Positions 1,254 through 12,475 of a DNA stretch of 12,475 nucleotides are shown in pieces (position 1 is the first letter of the stretch; each line of letters opens with the position of its first letter). The translations under genes and the position numbers were made by a program. The stretch lies in the IMG/VR virus record IMGVR_UViG_2923286960_000002, one strand, 5' to 3'. The stretch comes from a virus. Taxonomy: Duplodnaviria; Heunggongvirae; Uroviricota; Caudoviricetes. The notes under the pieces are model-generated. The model saw only the letters and a list, made by a program, of their open reading frames with translations, ran no database searches and was not told where the DNA came from.

Positions 1254-1313
1254 GCGGACAACGTGAAACAACGAGACACAACGACGAACAACAAGGAACA
1301 AAATGGAACAACG
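1254..1313. repeat. Six tandem 10-bp units with ACAAC(G) core, one helical turn apart
   Basis: ggacaACG tgaaACAACG agacACAACG acgaACAACA aggaACAAAA tggaACAACG, directly after the int stop codon. Confidence 0.6.
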
Positions 1314-1595
1314 GGTTAAAAATCAGCCATCGTAATAACCATTTGATTTTTATAGGTGTACTGTTTTTTTATACACTGGCGAATCACTCTTAAAAATATG
1401 TAAAAAAGGCGTAAAAGTAAAATTTTATGCCTTTGCATCATAATGAATTAAAAGAGTTTTTATTCTCATTCCCCCTGCTTCTGTAAAACGACCGCCGCCA
1501 GTGTTTGCCATTCCACAAACACCCTGACACAATCCGACACAACCCAACCCAATAATCCACCCAATGACTCTTTAAGAAACAACAAAGGGGGAATT

Positions 1596-1784: not shown

Positions 1785-1836
1785 TCAGGCTGGCGGCACA
1801 CAGCCGCCACCCATCCACTAATACAGAGATCTAACC

Positions 1837-3129
1837 ATGAATACTGGATATTCTCCCGAACAAGGGCGGGGCTTCGTTCGTCCTGAAAAACAGAATCTGC
1901 AAAATTTTGCCGAAAGTATTCCGGTTATTTCCGGCCTTACTGGCGGGAGTGAAACCAATATTGTTAACGCCAGAGCGTTGCAGATGTTTGATGATAAAAA
2001 GGGAGTAAATTTAACTTACACCCCTGACGGCAATCAGAATATGAGCATTATCTCTGAGTCAGGTTTCTACAAACTAATAAAAACAAAAAGCGCCCCGTTG
2101 CCGGAGCGCCTTTGTGAACAATTAACCTACTGCGCAAAAAATGAATCTGAGCAGTGGGATTATATCAACCATGTGGAGAAGCGCCACAATTGCCGAATAA
2201 CGGGCAAAACAAAGGCCACCCGCTACGGTGGCCCCTCGACACAAGCTACACGTTATCCCCAACGCATGAGCATTGCCAACAATGCCACATTTGCGGCTGG
2301 TGGGCAATGCAATCAGTCTGGTTCAGTTCGTTGCCATACCTGCAATGAGCGCTTTTCCCTGTACTCTTTAAGGAATTGCTCAAGGGCAAAAGCACATGGC
2401 GCGAATCTTTCTGATTCATGCTCTATCTTTCTGCGCCGTCTTTTCCGTGCCGGTGATAATGTTTTGGTCAATTCTTTATCGGTCATTGTGTTGTCCTGCA
2501 TAGCAATGCGCCGTAATACCTTACACCACGGCGCTGATGGTGATTACTCTGGTTCTTTGGCCTTGCGGCGCTGGCGATATTCAACTTCTCGTTTTAATGC
2601 CGCAGTAACAAATTGCCCCGTACTTTCGCCAGGCATTTTTACCGCCTCAACATTGTTCATAACTTCATGCGGAACCCTTGCCGCAACGGTTTGTGATTTT
2701 GCGTTTACTGCTTTTGTCGCCATGTGGTGTACCCCTCATAAAAAACAAATGCAGTATGCAGGAAAAAAAATAAGTGTTCAACACTTGACGTGTTTAACAC
2801 CTGGGTTTAAATTGGTGTTCAACACCTTGTTGGCGCAAGGTGCAGAAACGACGAAACCCGGCAGTGCGCTAACACTAACCGGGCTTCTAACCACCAACGA
2901 TAGCGAAAGTATCGAGGTAGCTATGCGAAATCATACCACACACCCGCAAGGGCGGGACTCGCACAACCTGAATAAATACATCTGGCGTTTTATCGCCCTG
3001 AGCACGGCACAACCGCGCGTGATTACCATTGAGGCCACCAGCGAACAGGAAGCACGCCAGCAATCTCCGGCTGGCTGCGTGATGGTATTCGCTGCCCGTA
3101 TTCGTCAGGAGGTGTGCCATGTGCAATAA
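1837..3129 (+). CDS. Bro-N-like domain ORF (antirepressor-like N-terminus); 3' two-thirds of the frame doubtful, possibly degraded
   Basis: N-terminal ~110 aa resemble the Bro-N domain (NLQNF..., DDKKGV..TPDGNQNMSIISESGFYKLIKTKSAP). From about aa 120 the frame is Cys/Ser/Thr/Arg-rich and poor in Asp/Glu/Lys, and it is antisense to a well-supported RHH gene. No clear SD before the ATG. Confidence 0.4.
   Translation: MNTGYSPEQGRGFVRPEKQNLQNFAESIPVISGLTGGSETNIVNARALQMFDDKKGVNLTYTPDGNQNMSIISESGFYKLIKTKSAPLPERLCEQLTYCAKNESEQWDYINHVEKRHNCRITGKTKATRYGGPSTQATRYPQRMSIANNATFAAGGQCNQSGSVRCHTCNERFSLYSLRNCSRAKAHGANLSDSCSIFLRRLFRAGDNVLVNSLSVIVLSCIAMRRNTLHHGADGDYSGSLALRRWRYSTSRFNAAVTNCPVLSPGIFTASTLFITSCGTLAATVCDFAFTAFVAMWCTPHKKQMQYAGKKISVQHLTCLTPGFKLVFNTLLAQGAETTKPGSALTLTGLLTTNDSESIEVAMRNHTTHPQGRDSHNLNKYIWRFIALSTAQPRVITIEATSEQEARQQSPAGCVMVFAARIRQEVCHVQ
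2313..2501 (-). CDS. Hypothetical small basic protein, second gene of the leftward RHH operon
   Basis: 62 aa, highly charged (KRRRRK), 42 nt downstream of the RHH gene on the same strand; no recognisable fold by eye. Confidence 0.3.
   Translation of the reverse strand: MQDNTMTDKELTKTLSPARKRRRRKIEHESERFAPCAFALEQFLKEYREKRSLQVWQRTEPD
2544..2723 (-). CDS. Ribbon-helix-helix (Arc/CopG/MetJ-like) DNA-binding protein, putative island repressor
   Basis: 59 aa ORF below the track's length cutoff: MATKAVNAKSQTVAARVPHEVMNNVEAVKMPGESTGQFVTAALKREVEYRQRRKAKEPE. Beta-strand/helix/G-x-S-T helix pattern of RHH proteins; GAGGGG SD ~9 nt upstream of ATG; three palindromic operators immediately upstream. Confidence 0.55.
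   Translation of the reverse strand: MATKAVNAKSQTVAARVPHEVMNNVEAVKMPGESTGQFVTAALKREVEYRQRRKAKEPE
2753..2826. promoter_or_regulatory. Divergent promoter/operator switch with three GTGTT-N-AACAC palindromes
   Basis: O1 2774-2784 gtgttcaacac, O2 2790-2800 gtgtttaacac, O3 2815-2825 gtgttcaacac. Rightward promoter TTGACG (2785-2790), 17 nt spacer, TAAATT (2808-2813). Leftward promoter TTGAAC (complement of 2776-2781), 17 nt, CATACT (complement of 2753-2758). O1 overlaps the leftward -35, O2 lies in the rightward spacer, O3 just after the rightward -10. Confidence 0.55.
2923..3129 (+). CDS. Hypothetical 68 aa protein; alternative first gene of the rightward operon (same frame as the 3' end of the 1837 ORF)
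   Basis: ATG at 2923 preceded by GAGGT; lies ~100 nt downstream of the rightward promoter; its stop overlaps the next start (ATGTGCAATAA). Confidence 0.3.
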   Translation: MRNHTTHPQGRDSHNLNKYIWRFIALSTAQPRVITIEATSEQEARQQSPAGCVMVFAARIRQEVCHVQ

Positions 3130-3358
3130 CATCCGTCCGGACGCAGCCGCCGAAGCCATCATAACGCTAATGCACGCGCTGATTGATATTTCTGTTATCG
3201 CAGACATGGCGCATAAGCACGCCACCAGTGAAACAGAATATGCCGGGGCTTTCGTTCCTCATTCGCTGGCGGTTATGCAACTTAGTGCGGATATGGCGCT
3301 GAATGAGGCCAAAGCCATCCTGATTGCTGATTGTGAAAATGGGGGGGGTTATGCGTGA
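3119..3358 (+). CDS. Hypothetical protein (79 aa)
   Basis: ORF translationally coupled to its neighbours; acidic, helical-looking composition; no recognisable family by eye. Confidence 0.5.
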   Translation: MCNNIRPDAAAEAIITLMHALIDISVIADMAHKHATSETEYAGAFVPHSLAVMQLSADMALNEAKAILIADCENGGGYA

Positions 3359-3584
3359 TGATCGTTTTAATTCCCTGAAACAGGAATTTTCCGGCGTTCC
3401 TGATGATGCGGCTGATGCGCTTTCGTCAATGCCAGAACTTATTAGAGCGGCTTTTTTCTTACTTTCCACGAGAGAATATAAATCAACGGGGCTTGATGTA
3501 CTGAATATCGCCGCCGATTATGCGGAATATGTGGCAGAGGCGCGTTACAGAAGAAAATTTCCTGAGGATGTAAGCCATGCGTGA
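3351..3584 (+). CDS. Hypothetical protein (77 aa; start chosen at the ATG behind a G-rich SD)
   Basis: Track ORF begins at 3324, but GGGGGGG at 3341-3347 precedes the ATG at 3351; start overlaps the upstream stop (ATGcgTGA). Confidence 0.5.
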   Translation: MRDDRFNSLKQEFSGVPDDAADALSSMPELIRAAFFLLSTREYKSTGLDVLNIAADYAEYVAEARYRRKFPEDVSHA

Positions 3585-3810
3585 TATTTACCACGAAACA
3601 ATAGACCGCGCATTTCTTGCACTTTCTCACAGTGAAAACATGCTGGAAATATTGCGCATATGGCTTGAAACACTTGGCGACAATGAACGCGACAAACAAA
3701 AATCAAGAATTGCCACGGCATTAATAACGCTTCTTGAGCCTGTAATAATGGAACTGCAAGAAATAGATCTATTGCACGACAGATATAAAGAACAGCACAC
3801 CGGAGAATAA
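3577..3810 (+). CDS. Hypothetical protein (77 aa)
   Basis: Start overlaps the stop of the upstream gene (ATGcgTGA at 3577-3584); protein-like composition. Confidence 0.5.
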   Translation: MRDIYHETIDRAFLALSHSENMLEILRIWLETLGDNERDKQKSRIATALITLLEPVIMELQEIDLLHDRYKEQHTGE

Positions 3811-3815
3811 AAATA

Positions 3816-4115
3816 ATGAAACTTAAATATTCTGGCTTAACTGCCAGTGGCAACACTCACCCTAAATTTACGCGCGGTGATATTTACCGCGACCAGTACG
3901 GCGGCACGGTAATGATTAAGGGCGTGGAAGAACGGCGTGTAACCTACCGCCGTGAAGGTTACGAATATGATTGCGTGATGCCTGTTTATCAGTTCCGGCG
4001 TGATTTTTCTCTGGTACAGACCGCGCCGCATAACGTGCCCACCAGCAACGCCAGGGCACGGGCAAACATCCAGAAGCTGAAAACCATGATTAACGGATTC
4101 AGGGGTAAAAAATGA
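3816..4115 (+). CDS. Hypothetical protein (99 aa), possibly a conserved enterobacterial prophage small protein
   Basis: Motif GDIYRDQYGGTVMIKGVEERRVTYRREGYEYDC; stop overlaps the start of the replication gene (ATGA at 4112-4115). Confidence 0.5.
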   Translation: MKLKYSGLTASGNTHPKFTRGDIYRDQYGGTVMIKGVEERRVTYRREGYEYDCVMPVYQFRRDFSLVQTAPHNVPTSNARARANIQKLKTMINGFRGKK

Positions 4116-5866
4116 AACTGGCACCGAACGTAAAACAGCAGTCACGCGGCATAAAACACAAAGGAACAGAAGTCATTATTTTTGCGGGTAGTGATGCCTG
4201 GGCACACGCGAAACAATGGCAGGAACATGATGCGCGTATGGCCGGAGATAATGAGCCTCCTGTGTGGCTTGGGGAGCAGCAGTTATCAGAACTGGATAAG
4301 CTGCAAATTGTGCCGGAAGGCAGAAAATCCGTGCGCATATTCAGGGCCGGATATCTTGCGCCAGTAATGATAAAGGCGATTGGCCAGAAGCTGGCGGCGG
4401 CAGGCGTACAGGATGCAAATTTTTACCCTGATGGTATGCACGGTCAGAAGGTGGAGAACTGGCGCGAATATCTGGCCCGTGAGCGCCAGAATCTTTCTGA
4501 TGGTCTGGTCATTGAGCTTCCGGTAAAGCAAAAGGCGCAACTTTCGCAGATGGCGGACAGTGAGCGCGCGCAGCTGCTTGCCGATCGCTTTGATGGCGTT
4601 TGCGTACATCCTGAAAGTGAAATCGTTCACGTATGGCGCGGCGGGGTATGGTGTCCGGTCAGCACAATGGAGCTTAGCCGCGAAATGGTGGCGATCTATT
4701 CAGAGCACAGGGCCACTTTCAGCAAGCGCGTAATCAATAACGCCGTGGAAGCGTTAAAAGTTATTGCCGAACCAATGGGCGAGCCGTCCGGCGATTTGCT
4801 GCCGTTCGCCAATGGTGCGCTTGACCTGAAAACGGGGGAATTTTCCCCGCACACGCCGGAGAACTGGATCACCACGCACAACGGCATTGAGTACACGCCA
4901 CCAGCACCCGGGGAGAACATCCGCGATAACGCGCCAAACTTTCATAAATGGCTTGAGCACGCAGCCGGAAAAGACCCGCGCAAGATGATGCGTATATGTG
5001 CCGCGCTGTACATGATTATGGCGAACCGGTACGACTGGCAGATGTTTATTGAGGCCACCGGAGACGGCGGGAGCGGTAAAAGTACATTCACACACATAGC
5101 CAGCCTTCTGGCAGGGAAACAGAACACGGTAAGCGCTGAAATGACATCGCTTGATGATGCTGGTGGACGTGCGCAGGTTGTCGGGAGTCGTCTTATCGTC
5201 CTGGCTGACCAGCCGAAATATACAGGCGAAGGAACGGGCATCAAGAAAATCACAGGCGGCGACCCCGTGGAAGTTAACCCGAAATATGAAAAGCGTTTCA
5301 CGGCGGTAATCAGGGCGGTGGTGCTGGCGACCAACAACAACCCGATGATATTCACCGAACGGGCCGGAGGTGTGGCACGTCGTCGCGTGATTTTCCGTTT
5401 CGACAATATCGTCAGTGAGGCCGACAAAGACAGGGAGCTACCGGAAAAGATTGCGGCTGAAATCCCTGTGATTATCCGCCGATTACTGGCGAACTTTTCC
5501 GCCCCTGAAAAGGCACGGGCTTTACTCATTGAACAGCGTGACGGTGATGAAGCACTGGCGATAAAGCAGCAAACGGATCCGGTTATTGAGTTTTGCCAGT
5601 TCCTGAATTTTCTGGAGGAAGCGCGCGGCCTGATGATGGGGGGCGGTGGCGATTCAGTGAAGTACACGACCAGGAACAGCCTTTACCGCGTCTATCTGGC
5701 GTTTATGGCATACGCAGGCAGGAGCAAACCGCTAAACGTAAATGACTTTGGCAAGGCTATGAAGCCAGCCGCGAAAGTTTACGGACATGAATATATTACG
5801 CGGAAAGTTAAGGGAGTAACGCAGACTAACGCAATAACAACAGACGATTGCGACGCGTTTTTATAA
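4112..5866 (+). CDS. Replication initiator/helicase, P4 alpha C-terminal-like (D5_N + SF3 helicase); PICI Pri-Rep-like
   Basis: 584 aa; Walker A GDGGSGKST near aa 315 followed by a hydrophobic strand ending LIVLAD; overall resemblance to the phage/plasmid primase P4-family C-terminal domain. No TOPRIM or AEP primase motif recognised by eye in the N-terminal 300 aa. Confidence 0.88.
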   Translation: MKLAPNVKQQSRGIKHKGTEVIIFAGSDAWAHAKQWQEHDARMAGDNEPPVWLGEQQLSELDKLQIVPEGRKSVRIFRAGYLAPVMIKAIGQKLAAAGVQDANFYPDGMHGQKVENWREYLARERQNLSDGLVIELPVKQKAQLSQMADSERAQLLADRFDGVCVHPESEIVHVWRGGVWCPVSTMELSREMVAIYSEHRATFSKRVINNAVEALKVIAEPMGEPSGDLLPFANGALDLKTGEFSPHTPENWITTHNGIEYTPPAPGENIRDNAPNFHKWLEHAAGKDPRKMMRICAALYMIMANRYDWQMFIEATGDGGSGKSTFTHIASLLAGKQNTVSAEMTSLDDAGGRAQVVGSRLIVLADQPKYTGEGTGIKKITGGDPVEVNPKYEKRFTAVIRAVVLATNNNPMIFTERAGGVARRRVIFRFDNIVSEADKDRELPEKIAAEIPVIIRRLLANFSAPEKARALLIEQRDGDEALAIKQQTDPVIEFCQFLNFLEEARGLMMGGGGDSVKYTTRNSLYRVYLAFMAYAGRSKPLNVNDFGKAMKPAAKVYGHEYITRKVKGVTQTNAITTDDCDAFL

Positions 5867-5880
5867 TTTTTTGCAATGGC

Positions 5881-6104
5881 TGTCTACCCTGTCTACCTGA
5901 GTAAAGAAAAATACATTTAATTCAGTATATTAACTTAGGTAGACAGCCTTTTTTCACTGTCTACCTACTATCTACCCTCTCTACCTGATTTTACCTGAAT
6001 CAGACAGGGAGGTAGATACGGGGTAGATAGTGGATAAAAGCACTCTACCCCGCTGAAAGCCGCGCCATTACTGGCATGAGAGCCAGTAAGGTAGATAAGG
6101 TAGA
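5881..6104. repeat. Replication origin: about 11 iterons with TCTACC core in both orientations flanking an AT-rich spacer
   Basis: tgTCTACCc (5883), tgTCTACCt (5893), GGTAGAca (5939), TCTACC (5960, 5971, 5980), GGTAGA (6011, 6022), TCTACC (6044), GGTAGA (6090, 6099); AT-rich 5905-5935. Directly downstream of the replication gene, as in SaPI/PICI origins. Confidence 0.75.
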
Positions 6105-6154
6105 CAAGGGGAGGCACAACTCAAAACTTTTTAAACGAGGGGGTAAAAATAAAA

Positions 6155-8867: not shown

Positions 8868-9281
8868 ATGGCAACGAATGAAAGCATCATGACGCTACCG
8901 CTGGCGAGTAAATTTAAAGCCGAAGCGCGGGCAATGGCTGACAGAGGTTTATCAACCTATGAGGCCGTATATCAACTAAACAAACTGGAAGAGCAGGACA
9001 AGCCGCGCGCTGATGCGATTATGGCGCTTCATGAGCATAAAGACTATCAGCCGCTGTTACGTGCAATGGCAAACGTGCCATGTATTAGCGTCGATAATGC
9101 TCGTGAAATCCTGAACATGACCATAGAGCAGGAGCGCCCAAAGGTTGCACCAGAGCTTACCGCAGCCTTTGAAAACTTTATGGACATGCACAGCCCGCAA
9201 GCCGTATCAGCTGGCATGGCATACGATGGCAGAAACCAGGGCGATGACGGCGACATCGATCGCATACTGAAAACCATCTGA
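8868..9281 (+). CDS. Hypothetical protein (137 aa), last gene of the head operon
   Basis: Good SD and protein-like composition; position analogous to lambda FI but no similarity recognised by eye. Confidence 0.5.
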   Translation: MATNESIMTLPLASKFKAEARAMADRGLSTYEAVYQLNKLEEQDKPRADAIMALHEHKDYQPLLRAMANVPCISVDNAREILNMTIEQERPKVAPELTAAFENFMDMHSPQAVSAGMAYDGRNQGDDGDIDRILKTI

Positions 9282-10178: not shown

Positions 10179-10460
10179 ATGACAGAAGCCGAAATACTGC
10201 GATTAATCCGCCGCGTTGCCGGAATCAGCCAGCAGGCCGACGAACAGACCACGCAGCCGGACAGCGTGACCGCCGAAAATTATGTTCGTGTGGTTGCTGA
10301 GATGATTCGCCGTAATGGTATCCAGCTTAATGATGTGGATATGCGCAACATACGGATCCGCGTTCTTGAAATGCTGGCCTACAATCGCCGCGTGGCACTG
10401 TATCGGGAAACGGAGAAAATTACGTACCACTGGAAGAAGCCGGAGCGGTTGCGGCGGTAA
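10179..10460 (+). CDS. Hypothetical protein (93 aa)
   Basis: ATG preceded by GGGGG SD; charged, helical-looking composition; no family recognised by eye. Confidence 0.45.
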   Translation: MTEAEILRLIRRVAGISQQADEQTTQPDSVTAENYVRVVAEMIRRNGIQLNDVDMRNIRIRVLEMLAYNRRVALYRETEKITYHWKKPERLRR

Positions 10461-10628
10461 CTGGTTGATATTTTCGAAATTCGCCAGCGGCGAACATCGG
10501 GGAAACCAGCCTAACCCGTTGATATTTTCGGGAACCTCAAATTGAGGAGGTCGGAAACATAACCCGTCATATTCTGGATGCTGATAATTACCACGCAGCC
10601 CATTAAGGCCTAACCCGTTGATTCTTCC
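10458..10628. repeat. Four direct repeats with TAACCCGTTGAT-like core at ~50-bp spacing
   Basis: taactggttgatattttcg (10458), taacccgttgatattttcg (10512), taacccgtcatattctgg (10560), taacccgttgattcttcc (10611). Confidence 0.55.
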
Positions 10629-10798: not shown

Positions 10799-11014
10799 AT
10801 CGACATTAACGCCCCTCATGAATTGGCGCGCTTCCCCCTGGAAAGATGACCCGCCTGTATATTTCTTGTGTCTATTTGTTCCACGTTGTTTCATACAGTG
10901 CAACGATCGGTGTAGTTAATGGTGTAGTCAATTTGCGATTTTTAGCACTTTTTGCAGTGCGAATCATTTAATTAAATCAATGGCTTGCCTTGATGTAGTG
11001 ATAAAAGGGCATAT

Positions 11015-12475
11015 TTATTCATCTTTCGGCGCAGAATGCTGGCGACCAAAAATCACCTCCATCCGCGCACCGCCCAGCATGCTCTCTCCGGCGACGATTT
11101 TACCCTCATATTGCTCGGTGATTTCGCGGGCTACCGCCAGCCCTACACCTTGCCCAGGGCGTAAAGTATCAACCCGTTGACCACGGTCGAAAATGACCTC
11201 TCGCTTGCTTAATGGAATACCGGGGCCATCATCCTCGACCACAATATAGAGATGCTCGTCGGTTTGCCTTGCAGAAATTTCGACAAACTCGAGGCAATAT
11301 TTACAGGCATTATCCAGCACGTTGCCCATCACCTCGACAAAATCGTTCTGCTCACCGACAAAGCTGATCTCTGGCGAAATATCGAGAGAGATATTGACCC
11401 CTTTGCGTTGATACACTTTGTTCAGCGCTGAGGTGAGATTGTCCAGCAGTGGGGCGACCGGATGCAGCTCGCGGCTGAGCAATGTCCCGCCGCGCATACT
11501 GGCACGATGCAGGTAGTAGCCAATTTGCTGTGAAATGCGGCTGATTTGCTCCAGCATTACCGGCTCAGCATCACTGACGCTCATCTTTTCACTACGCAGA
11601 GAACGCAGCGTACTTTGCAGCACCGCCAGTGGCGTTTTCAGACTATGGGTCAGGTCGGTGAGCGTCGTACGGTATTTGTCGTAACGTTCGCGTTCACTTT
11701 TTAACAATCGGTTCAGGTTTCGTACCAGACTGGTCAGTTCTCGCGTTGTGGCTGGATTGAGCAATTCGCGGTTATGTTCTTCCAGTTCGCGGACTTCTTT
11801 TGCCAGGGCTTCGATGGGGCGTAAACTCCACCAGGCGGCGACCCACAGCAGCGGGATCACTAACAGCAGATTGGCTGAGAGCACATAGATAAACCAGCTC
11901 CAGACCATATAGGAACTTTTTAGCTCCACCGGAATGGTATCCACCACCACAATGGTTAATTTTGGCATCCGCGATGTTGCCGGGTAGACGTTTACTGCCA
12001 CCGAGTGGGTCATCTCCGCGTCGTCATCATCTTCCCGCACTTCCTGCAACTGTTGCTGTATCGAATGATCTCCACTCAGCAAGAGGCTGGTATCGTTAAC
12101 ATCCGCTTCAATTTCATGAAAACCATTCGATTTCAGCCAGTCAGGCTGGATCATCTTCATCAGCCAGGGCACGTCACGTTGCGCCCATAAAAGCTGCCCG
12201 TTCTCATCATAAATTAGCGTCATGGTGGGGCTTTGCTTGTCGATATTTTCGGGTAACTCGACATGCAACTTATTGTTTTCCCACTTCGCAAGGGTATAGA
12301 ACAGATTGCTCTCGCCACGTAACAGCCGAAACGTAGTTTTATCGAAACTGACGCTATAACCGATCAGCGCGACCATTCCGTAGGCAAGCGAAAGCACCAG
12401 TACTACCGCTGCCGTTGCCAACAGAAAACGTACCCGCAGCGAGAGCGGGAAAAAAAGACGCAGTAATTTTTTCAT
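11015..12475 (-). CDS. phoQ: Sensor histidine kinase PhoQ (chromosomal, Escherichia/Shigella-type)
   Basis: 486 aa full-length ORF; N-terminus [33 protein letters not shown], periplasmic acidic patch [12 protein letters not shown]-box [12 protein letters not shown], and G-box/ATP-lid motifs DDGPGIP and GQGVGLAV. Window ends at its ATG. Confidence 0.95.

Follow-up and report, generated by a model that had tools for sequence, protein, structure and literature searches.

Which protein reads the run of short tandem repeats between the integrase gene and alpA of this island, and what does the run control? The window, by which we mean the whole 12,475-nucleotide stretch analysed, covers most of an Escherichia coli capsid-forming PICI of the EcCIEDL933 type that is inserted at the 3' end of phoQ; the host gene lies downstream of the island on the opposite strand, and the left end of the island is just beyond the window edge. 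The int gene (1-1230, + strand) encodes a P4-type tyrosine integrase with an N-terminal arm-binding domain (Pfam PF13356, Arm-DNA-bind_3, and PF00589, Phage_integrase), and alpA (1596-1784, + strand) encodes a 62-aa winged-helix protein (PF05930, Phage_AlpA, E = 3e-18), which we propose as the ligand of the repeats. Other products of the island include a D5-type primase (gene at 4112-5866), a DUF4222 protein, a lambda-E-like capsid protein and a head-decoration protein. AlpA has been described as the master switch of Gram-negative PICIs, cf-PICIs included (PMC6092414; PMC11773190; 10.1101/2022.09.08.507074). Its over-expression leads to PICI excision and replication, and in EcCICFT073 it activates its own promoter and not Pint (PMC6092414; PMC11773190). 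The cf-PICI EcCIEDL933 requires alpA and is induced by HK106 and HK446 (10.1101/2022.09.08.507074), and helper phages raise PICI alpA transcription through a factor that was left unidentified in that report (PMC6092414). We found no report of an AlpA binding site or operator in Gram-negative PICIs in the literature searched.

The distal array consists of six head-to-tail 10-bp units at 1255-1314 on the + strand (CGGACAACGT GAAACAACGA GACACAACGA CGAACAACAA GGAACAAAAT GGAACAACGG) with PWM scores of 9.4-13.7 bits; the letters at 1254-1313 are gcGGACAACGT followed by GAAACAACGA, GACACAACGA, CGAACAACAA, GGAACAAAAT and GGAACAACGG. The starts of ACAA fall at 1258, 1268, 1278, 1288, 1298 and 1308, a period of exactly 10 bp over six units, and the consensus unit of the array is G-R-A-ACAA-C-G-N. 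The original prediction had placed six 10-bp units sharing an ACAAC(G) core between int and alpA. The location, the number of units and the exact period are borne out, but the core was overstated: ACAAC is present in five of the six units, the fifth reads ACAAA, and the invariant core is ACAA. Tandem Repeats Finder likewise reports period 10, with a score of 46 for 1258-1301 and of 38 for 1286-1311. The base content of the array is 50% A, with C equal to G (14 each).

Chance seldom produces such phasing. When the whole island was shuffled 2000 times, chains of at least three ACAA words at period 10 arose in 2 of the shuffles; with 20000 shuffles each, the count was 5 for the intergenic region and 9 for the A-rich 70 bp, and a chain of six arose zero times across all shuffles. 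Unrelated control DNA amounting to ~84 kb, drawn from part of HK106, from a CFT073 prophage and from P4, had no phased ACAA chain of at least three. A scan of viral contigs for AACAA repeated four times at period 10 gave more than 120 matches, mostly unrelated low-complexity DNA, with only 4 related islands among them, so the bare pattern is not diagnostic outside the int-alpA context.

Of 5426 complete E. coli genomes, 858 contain a homologue of the int-alpA spacer, usually with a nucleotide identity of just 75%, which puts the array in about one sixth of these genomes, O157:H7 islands included. Strain 2017C-4173W12, for example, has a near-identical int-alpA module at a site between roxA and phoQ. 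A search of genome contigs with the 62-aa AlpA gave at least three loci, one of them relevant. Of 57 distinct upstream regions drawn from genomes and IMG/VR contigs, 48 have five or six exactly phased cores, placed some 300-350 bp 5' of alpA. The original prediction was to be given up if related islands lacked the array, and they do not. Aligning 52 distinct spacers gives a conservation profile with a period of 10 bp: conservation is 90-100% at the cores of units 3-6 and 13-33% at most spacer positions. One island has undergone a whole-unit duplication with the phase kept. The array is therefore under selection for a short word and its spacing. Two other origins were considered: a simple slippage remnant is ruled out since the cores are conserved but the spacers have diverged, and a minus-strand coding repeat is rejected since the ORFs at 1122-1301 and 1168-1311 are mechanical and conservation has period 10, not 3. 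More distant PICIs have an extra ORF between int and alpA and no long distal array; they have just two phased units, which lie inside a hairpin upstream of alpA, so the six-unit block is lineage-specific.

One sister island has a 100% identical int-alpA module, att arms (the P arm included) that are 99% identical, and a different replication module. The array is kept despite this swap of the replication module, which implies that its ligand is encoded in, or acts on, the int-alpA module. An iteron function was rejected: the iteron-like repeats of the island, CTGTCTACC and TAAGGTAGA, are located at 5880-6109, just after the primase gene, and are unrelated in sequence.

Comparison with the empty site of K-12 placed the att core, CATATTT(T)AT, and with it made both attP arms readable. 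The right copy, CATATTTAT (11010-11018), overlaps the phoQ stop codon, and the left copy, which falls outside the window, precedes the int ATG by ~180 bp; the sequence of the left (P') arm was taken from sister island L001, whose int is identical. Each arm contains a block of the phased unit in the orientation opposite to the int-alpA array. The P arm has three units on the - strand at 10863-10892, reading TTGTgtctat TTGTTCCacg TTGTTTCata on the plus strand, and the P' arm has four inverted units in the int promoter region (L001, about 1767-1806), reading TTGTTCCagc TTGTTTCacg TTGTagccct TTGTgcaacg. These arm blocks are the only other period-10 ACAA chains of at least three in the 12.7-kb island. 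Likewise, the nine PWM sites of at least 10 bits in the island are confined to the three blocks and one site in the alpA leader (1576-1585). Array units 1-3 are identical to the inverted P-arm triple at 21 of 24 positions, and a string within them matches the P' arm 14/14.

Each arm block directly abuts a tandem pair of 12-mers (GGTGTAGTTAAT GGTGTAGTYAAT). The P-arm pair, GGTGTAGTTAAT GGTGTAGTCAAT at 10909-10932 on the + strand, is a likely pair of Int arm-type sites, and the P'-arm pair (L001, 1807-1830) is located just upstream of int. When up to two mismatches are allowed, GGTGTAGTYAAT occurs only at 10909-10932 and in two chance-level intragenic matches, and none is found within 1231-1595. 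Between the P-arm 12-mers and the att core there is an exact match to the IHF consensus (10975-10987, + strand). The P' module is kept regardless of the integration site (roxA, tqsA and others). New here are the inverted copies of the unit in both attP arms, abutting pairs of Int-type 12-mers. A second island class, class B, found for example in NZ_CP018948.1, has TTGTTCG three times at the corresponding place in the P arm, TTGTTCG/TTGTTTG in the P' arm and CGAAC three times at period 10 in the int-alpA spacer.

The GenBank record of P4 lists the attP arm repeats as 12-bp tandem pairs on either side of the core, one pair being just upstream of int. The tandem GGTGTAGTYAAT layout of the island is the same, and four such sites match an Int tetramer. 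Given this P4-type layout and the lack of 12-mers in the int-alpA spacer, we take the 12-mers to be sites of the Int arm domain and suppose that another protein reads the 10-bp units.

Module swaps among related islands bear on the same assignment. Relative to the window type, L202 has an AlpA at 59% identity and units changed to TTGTTCG in both arms and to CGAAC, three times at period 10, in the int-alpA spacer, with an Int N-terminus at 80% and unchanged 12-mers. Relative to L202, L203 and L273 have an AlpA at 92-95% and unchanged units (TTGTTCG/TTGTTTG), with an Int N-terminus at 60% and 12-mers changed to TGTGTGGTCAGT. Relative to the window type, L004 has an AlpA at 94% and unchanged units, with an Int N-terminus at 81% and 12-mers changed to GGTGTAGTCACT. 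In all three swaps the change goes in the direction predicted if AlpA reads the unit, and contrary to that predicted if Int or a host factor reads it. With moderate confidence, given three swaps in a small sample, the 10-bp unit appears to track the AlpA type and the 12-mer the Int N-terminal domain. The recognition-helix region reads SRSCRYR in one AlpA class and CRTTRYE in the other. The differences in specificity are modest, since the classes have similar units (TTGTTY...) and since CGAACAA and CGGACAA, two units out of the six in the array, resemble the class B form.

It is unlikely that the N-terminal domain of the P4-type Int reads the units as extra arm-type sites, with the array as an Int sink or autoregulatory site. 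Int does have an Arm-DNA-bind_3 domain, the units are present on both attP arms, and arm-type sites may be closely spaced direct repeats, as are P'1-P'3 of lambda. [quoted passage not shown] Against this, the arm repeats of P4 are 12-bp tandem pairs, as are the two GGTGTAGTYAAT-type sites here, and the spacer with the array has no 12-mers. It is also the 12-mers, not the units, that change with the Int N-terminus (L004, and L203 relative to L202), and 1.4 kb separate the array from the closest core, where arm sites would be expected within a few hundred bp.

The properties of AlpA agree with those of a protein that reads tandem sites. An AF2 model (pLDDT 88.5) has the beta-alpha-alpha-beta-beta-alpha order of a winged helix, and the best solved match in both sequence and fold is the GIsul2 excisionase (PDB 8c3t; E = 2.6e-6, TM 0.79). 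AlpA also matches RdfS, TorI and BldC. RdfS and BldC are described as forming head-to-tail oligomers, which BldC builds on direct repeats spaced by about one turn of DNA (PMC11963761), and RDF operators in general are direct repeats about one helical turn apart that are bound cooperatively with bending (PMC7498355; PMC11963761). In keeping with such an operator, the array has six direct repeats in the same orientation at exactly 10 bp, where at least three with a spacing of 10-11 bp would be expected, the island encodes a small winged-helix protein of the RDF family in AlpA, and the unit is present in the att site beside Int arm-type sites, an arrangement replicated in the second island class.

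The array is probably a multi-site operator for AlpA, the RDF-family winged-helix protein of the island. AlpA monomers would sit head-to-tail, one per G-R-A-ACAA-C-G-N unit, on a single face of the helix. Cooperative filling of the six strong sites, possibly assisted by IHF, would yield a short nucleoprotein filament and bend the DNA. Cooperative filaments and bending are known for lambda Xis, 186 Apl, P2 Cox and P4 Vis. The three phased blocks, with three units in the P arm, four in the P' arm and six in the int-alpA spacer, may then serve different ends. The arm blocks beside the Int arm-type sites would direct excision by re-shaping the intasome, and AlpA bound to the P' arm may also modulate Pint, in the way that P4 Vis does. 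The six-unit block, together with weaker in-phase units at 1526-1545 and 1576-1585, would serve in cis as the site where AlpA controls the operon that encodes it. Excision and transcriptional induction would in this way be coupled to one AlpA threshold.

The original prediction saw in the array a binding platform either for an Xis/AlpA-like protein that polymerises along DNA or for the integrase arm domain. The first option is supported by the copies on both arms, the co-variation with AlpA and the excisionase fold; the second is not, given the missing 12-mers and the co-variation of the 12-mers with Int. Of the two roles that it suggested, control of excision or of int/alpA expression, the first is not supported either. 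With the left att core ~1.4 kb away and the right one 9.7 kb away, the array is unlikely to be the excision site itself, and it is the arm copies that fit excision. The array copy is more likely a transcriptional operator than an excision site.

The rest of the spacer contains further elements. Directly after the int stop codon is a T8-GCGA-T5 block of two phased T-tracts (1231-1250) in which most positions are 98-100% conserved and three are variable. A 12-mer of this block, TTTGCGATTTTT, recurs at 10932-10943 in the P arm, beside the P-arm 12-mers (12/12 identical); the block may be an intrinsic bend or an accessory site. An exact IHF consensus, AATCAAATGGTTA, is located on the - strand at 1336-1348, 22 bp downstream of the array, one of 6 exact matches in the window where 0.57 are expected. 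Its TAA and TGATTTT parts are conserved in relatives, and IHF may bind there. Between this site and a hairpin there is a further conserved block. The hairpin (1405-1434) is a stable, terminator-like 12-bp stem between the array and the alpA promoter, with the better T-run on the minus strand and with folding energies of -16.6 kcal/mol (z -5.5) on the + strand and -10.1 kcal/mol (z -3.2) on the - strand. Compensatory changes occur in its stem among relatives (GGCGT/ATGCC, GGCGT/ACGCC and GGCAT/ATGCC).

The candidate alpA promoter at 1505-1533 (+ strand; TTGCCA, 17 nt, TG-extended CACAAT) is the sole sigma-70-like match in 1100-1900, and its TTTGCCA is invariant in relatives. The promoter scan, whose assignments are weak, found no sigma-70-like promoter beside the array, or upstream of int at the threshold of the tool. 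Two phased units, GACACAATCC GACACAACCC (1526-1545, + strand), overlap the candidate -10/+1 region. One of them contains GACACAA, identical to a P-arm unit, and relatives keep 2-4 units there. A single strong unit of 12.3 bits, GAAACAACAA (1576-1585, + strand), is found just upstream of the alpA RBS, 40 bp or four periods from the unit at 1536. The array is about 225-285 bp upstream of the sole predicted promoter, which is far for direct activation. At that distance direct activation would require looping, and bending by IHF and the T-tracts might let the array communicate with the promoter-proximal units. The position of the proximal units over the predicted -10/+1 would predict repression, contrary to the activation reported for EcCICFT073. 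AlpA at the array may act as an activator, or as a repressor or roadblock.

Helper phages could provide the ligand in place of AlpA. The array would then be a receptor for a helper-phage DNA-binding protein, either an RDF of the Xis, Cox or AlpA-like kind or another early protein, that switches on alpA. We consider this quite unlikely, and hold equally doubtful a combined course in which a helper RDF, together with IHF, would fire the first alpA burst at the array before AlpA takes over the array and the att-arm copies. Helper phages do induce alpA (PMC6092414), and cross-talk has been shown among excisionases of the AlpA family from a PICI, from an ICE and from a helper phage (PMC11773190). 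P2 Cox offers a precedent, with three 10-bp-phased Cox boxes upstream of P4 vis, where three 10-bp repeats are annotated (9176-9205); a later paper cites Saha 1989 for a site on P4 at which Cox acts (PMC7498355). The Xis sites of lambda and HK106 (TATGTTGTGTTTT) are also loosely like the unit. However, the units are on the island's own att arms and track its own AlpA type, and no phased ACAA chain turned up in 23.5 kb of HK106 that cover its early and att regions. The xis and attP of HK106 are of the lambda/HK022 type, so that helper specificity is not obviously explained by Xis.

Binding of the array by a host nucleoid protein, or a role merely as curved or flexible DNA, is very unlikely. The array is 50% A and helically phased, and it is flanked by the T-tracts at 1231-1247 and the IHF consensus at 1336-1348. 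Against a host ligand, the unit is class-specific in a shared host (ACAA or CGAAC) and tracks the AlpA type. ACAA is also no A-tract, and what is conserved is a specific 4-7-bp word, not composition.

An RNA-level element in the int 3' UTR or alpA leader, as a CA-rich unstructured tract, whether for Rho loading, for an Hfq/CsrA-type protein or for translational control, is highly improbable: the transcribed region would be unusually unstructured, since nearly all shuffles fold better on both strands (z +1.7 and +1.9), the stable hairpin at 1405-1434 lies downstream and a 2006 study by Piazzolla is said to have found that P4 Vis binds RNA too, but a strict 10-bp phase has no obvious meaning for single-stranded RNA, the unit recurs inverted in both att arms, of which one is at the far end of the island, as fits recognition of double-stranded DNA and not of one RNA strand, and no Rfam match was obtained at the array at E up to 1. 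A rut site was rejected with C equal to G in the array, there being no tract with C in excess of G. Weak Rfam matches to SymR and mir-3927 elsewhere are probably spurious or unrelated.

Under the AlpA operator reading, G-R-A-ACAA-C-G-N with a 10-bp phase becomes a candidate operator word. All its copies are mapped, in the distal array, the promoter-proximal units and both att arms, and Int arm-type sites, IHF sites and the att core are each assigned separately. This makes testable whether AlpA is both excisionase and activator, how excision and transcription are coupled, and whether helper factors act through the array. If helper and satellite do make contact at the array, this would provide the long-sought induction mechanism and a basis for helper specificity in Gram-negative PICIs and cf-PICIs.

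Among known systems, the array most likely joins the RDF operator arrays of the lambda Xis, 186 Apl, P2 Cox and P4 Vis kind. Apl of 186 and Cox of P2 and HP1 resemble the proposed arrangement in having direct repeats one turn apart, a small winged-helix or HTH protein and cooperative bending. In 186, Apl has five repeats at att and seven at the pR-pL switch (PMC7498355), that is, an att block and a larger regulatory block, as the six units here are at the regulatory region. The differences are that Apl and Cox do not belong to the sequence family of AlpA (PF05930) and that their promoter block, placed between lytic and lysogenic promoters that face each other, represses, while activation is what is reported for the AlpA of PICIs. 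The island also has units on both att arms, unlike the Apl and Cox systems.

P4 Vis and CP4-57 AlpA are closer, with the same protein and integrase families and the same plan of 12-bp tandem arm sites as the island (TAGGCCCA twice in CP4-57). Both P4 and CP4-57 have three to four short units (TCC(G)) phased at 10 bp on the core side of the P' 12-mer pair, and the P4 TCCG units are a lead as the counterpart of the island units. Vis is cited as promoting excision and regulating promoters, Pint included (PMC7286903). P4 and CP4-57 differ from the island in the word itself, which is of the TCCG type and not GRAACAA, and P4 has no six-unit block directly after int.

The AlpA antiterminator of P. 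aeruginosa belongs to the same Pfam family, and a terminator-like hairpin is found downstream of the island array. [quoted passage not shown] The island array, in contrast, is multi-copy and phased and overlaps no promoter, and of the features of a P. aeruginosa-type ABE only the downstream hairpin is present.

The X1-X1.5-X2 sites of lambda Xis resemble the island in their head-to-tail winged helices and in tandem sites about one turn apart beside an Int arm site and an IHF/Fis site. The lambda Xis site, TATGTTGTGTTTT, is T/G-rich and loosely like the island unit. Lambda differs from the island in having three sites on one arm only and no separate operator block, and in the Pfam family of Xis. 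Relative to lambda, RDF sites on both att arms are unusual.

The att core, CATATTT(T)AT, lies at 11010-11018 in the window, at about 1672-1681 in the sister island L001 and at about 1808-1825 in the empty site of K-12 (L201). In the window the core overlaps the stop codon of phoQ; the island is therefore integrated at the 3' end of phoQ, which it regenerates. The placement of the core sets the limits of the island from about 180 bp upstream of base 1 of the window to about 11018. A direct repeat of some 20 bp that resembles TAACCnGTTGATATTTTCG occurs three times in the island's last kilobase, before the P arm is reached (10455-10475, 10509-10530 and 10606-10626), and in each copy the minus strand contains an exact match to the IHF consensus. 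A listed ORF covers part of this kilobase. The repeats could be a site of the capsid-forming PICI for packaging, either cos/pac or one recognised by the small terminase.

The 12-mer TTTGCGATTTTT is present in identical form at 1236-1247, where it adjoins the distal array of phased units, and at 10932-10943, where it adjoins the 12-mers of the P arm that are putative integrase sites. Each copy sits inside a pair of phased T-tracts, and the two may have a common role, as a bend or as a site for an accessory factor. The spacer between int and alpA also contains a stable 12-bp hairpin at 1405-1434 (dG -16.6, z -5.5), in which relatives show compensatory substitutions. The minus strand offers the better T-run, which suggests that the hairpin terminates a transcript running leftward, or transcripts from both directions.

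Short TCC(G) units in 10-bp phase, three to four in number, are also found in P4 (L283 3966-4005, minus strand) and CP4-57 (L285, about 150-190), in both cases on the core side of the pair of 12-mer arm repeats in P'. The order of phased units, 12-mer pair and int may thus be a general plan for AlpA/Vis proteins with P4-type integrases. The control architecture upstream of alpA is a different one in four more distant PICIs. These islands carry an additional ORF between int and alpA, and the alpA start is immediately preceded by a GC-stem hairpin whose loop encloses two units (GTTCG or TGAAC) in 10-bp phase (L203, about 2355-2400; L273, about 2950-3000; L280 and L281, directly before alpA). A T-run follows the hairpin in three of the four, and GTGATATCAC palindromes lie further upstream in 3/4 (L203, L280 and L281).

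The sister island matches the window with 100% identity in the int-alpA module and 99% identity in the att arms. Opposite 1785-5866 of the window, however, it has (L001 3636-6501 and L290) a RepA-helicase replication module in place of the D5 primase, and its accessory genes differ. This pattern shows modular exchange downstream of alpA. Directly after the primase gene of the window, iteron-like repeats CTGTCTACC and TAAGGTAGA lie in a region (5880-6109) that is probably the replication origin of the island. A long inverted repeat within it, at 5945-6042, produced a spurious Rfam match to mir-3927. On the minus strand at 2850-2922, antisense inside the 430-aa ORF, there is a weak Rfam match resembling the SymR antitoxin, with E 0.004 and 33 bits, a score that falls short of the gathering score; it could be an antisense RNA, an immunity RNA or a chance match.
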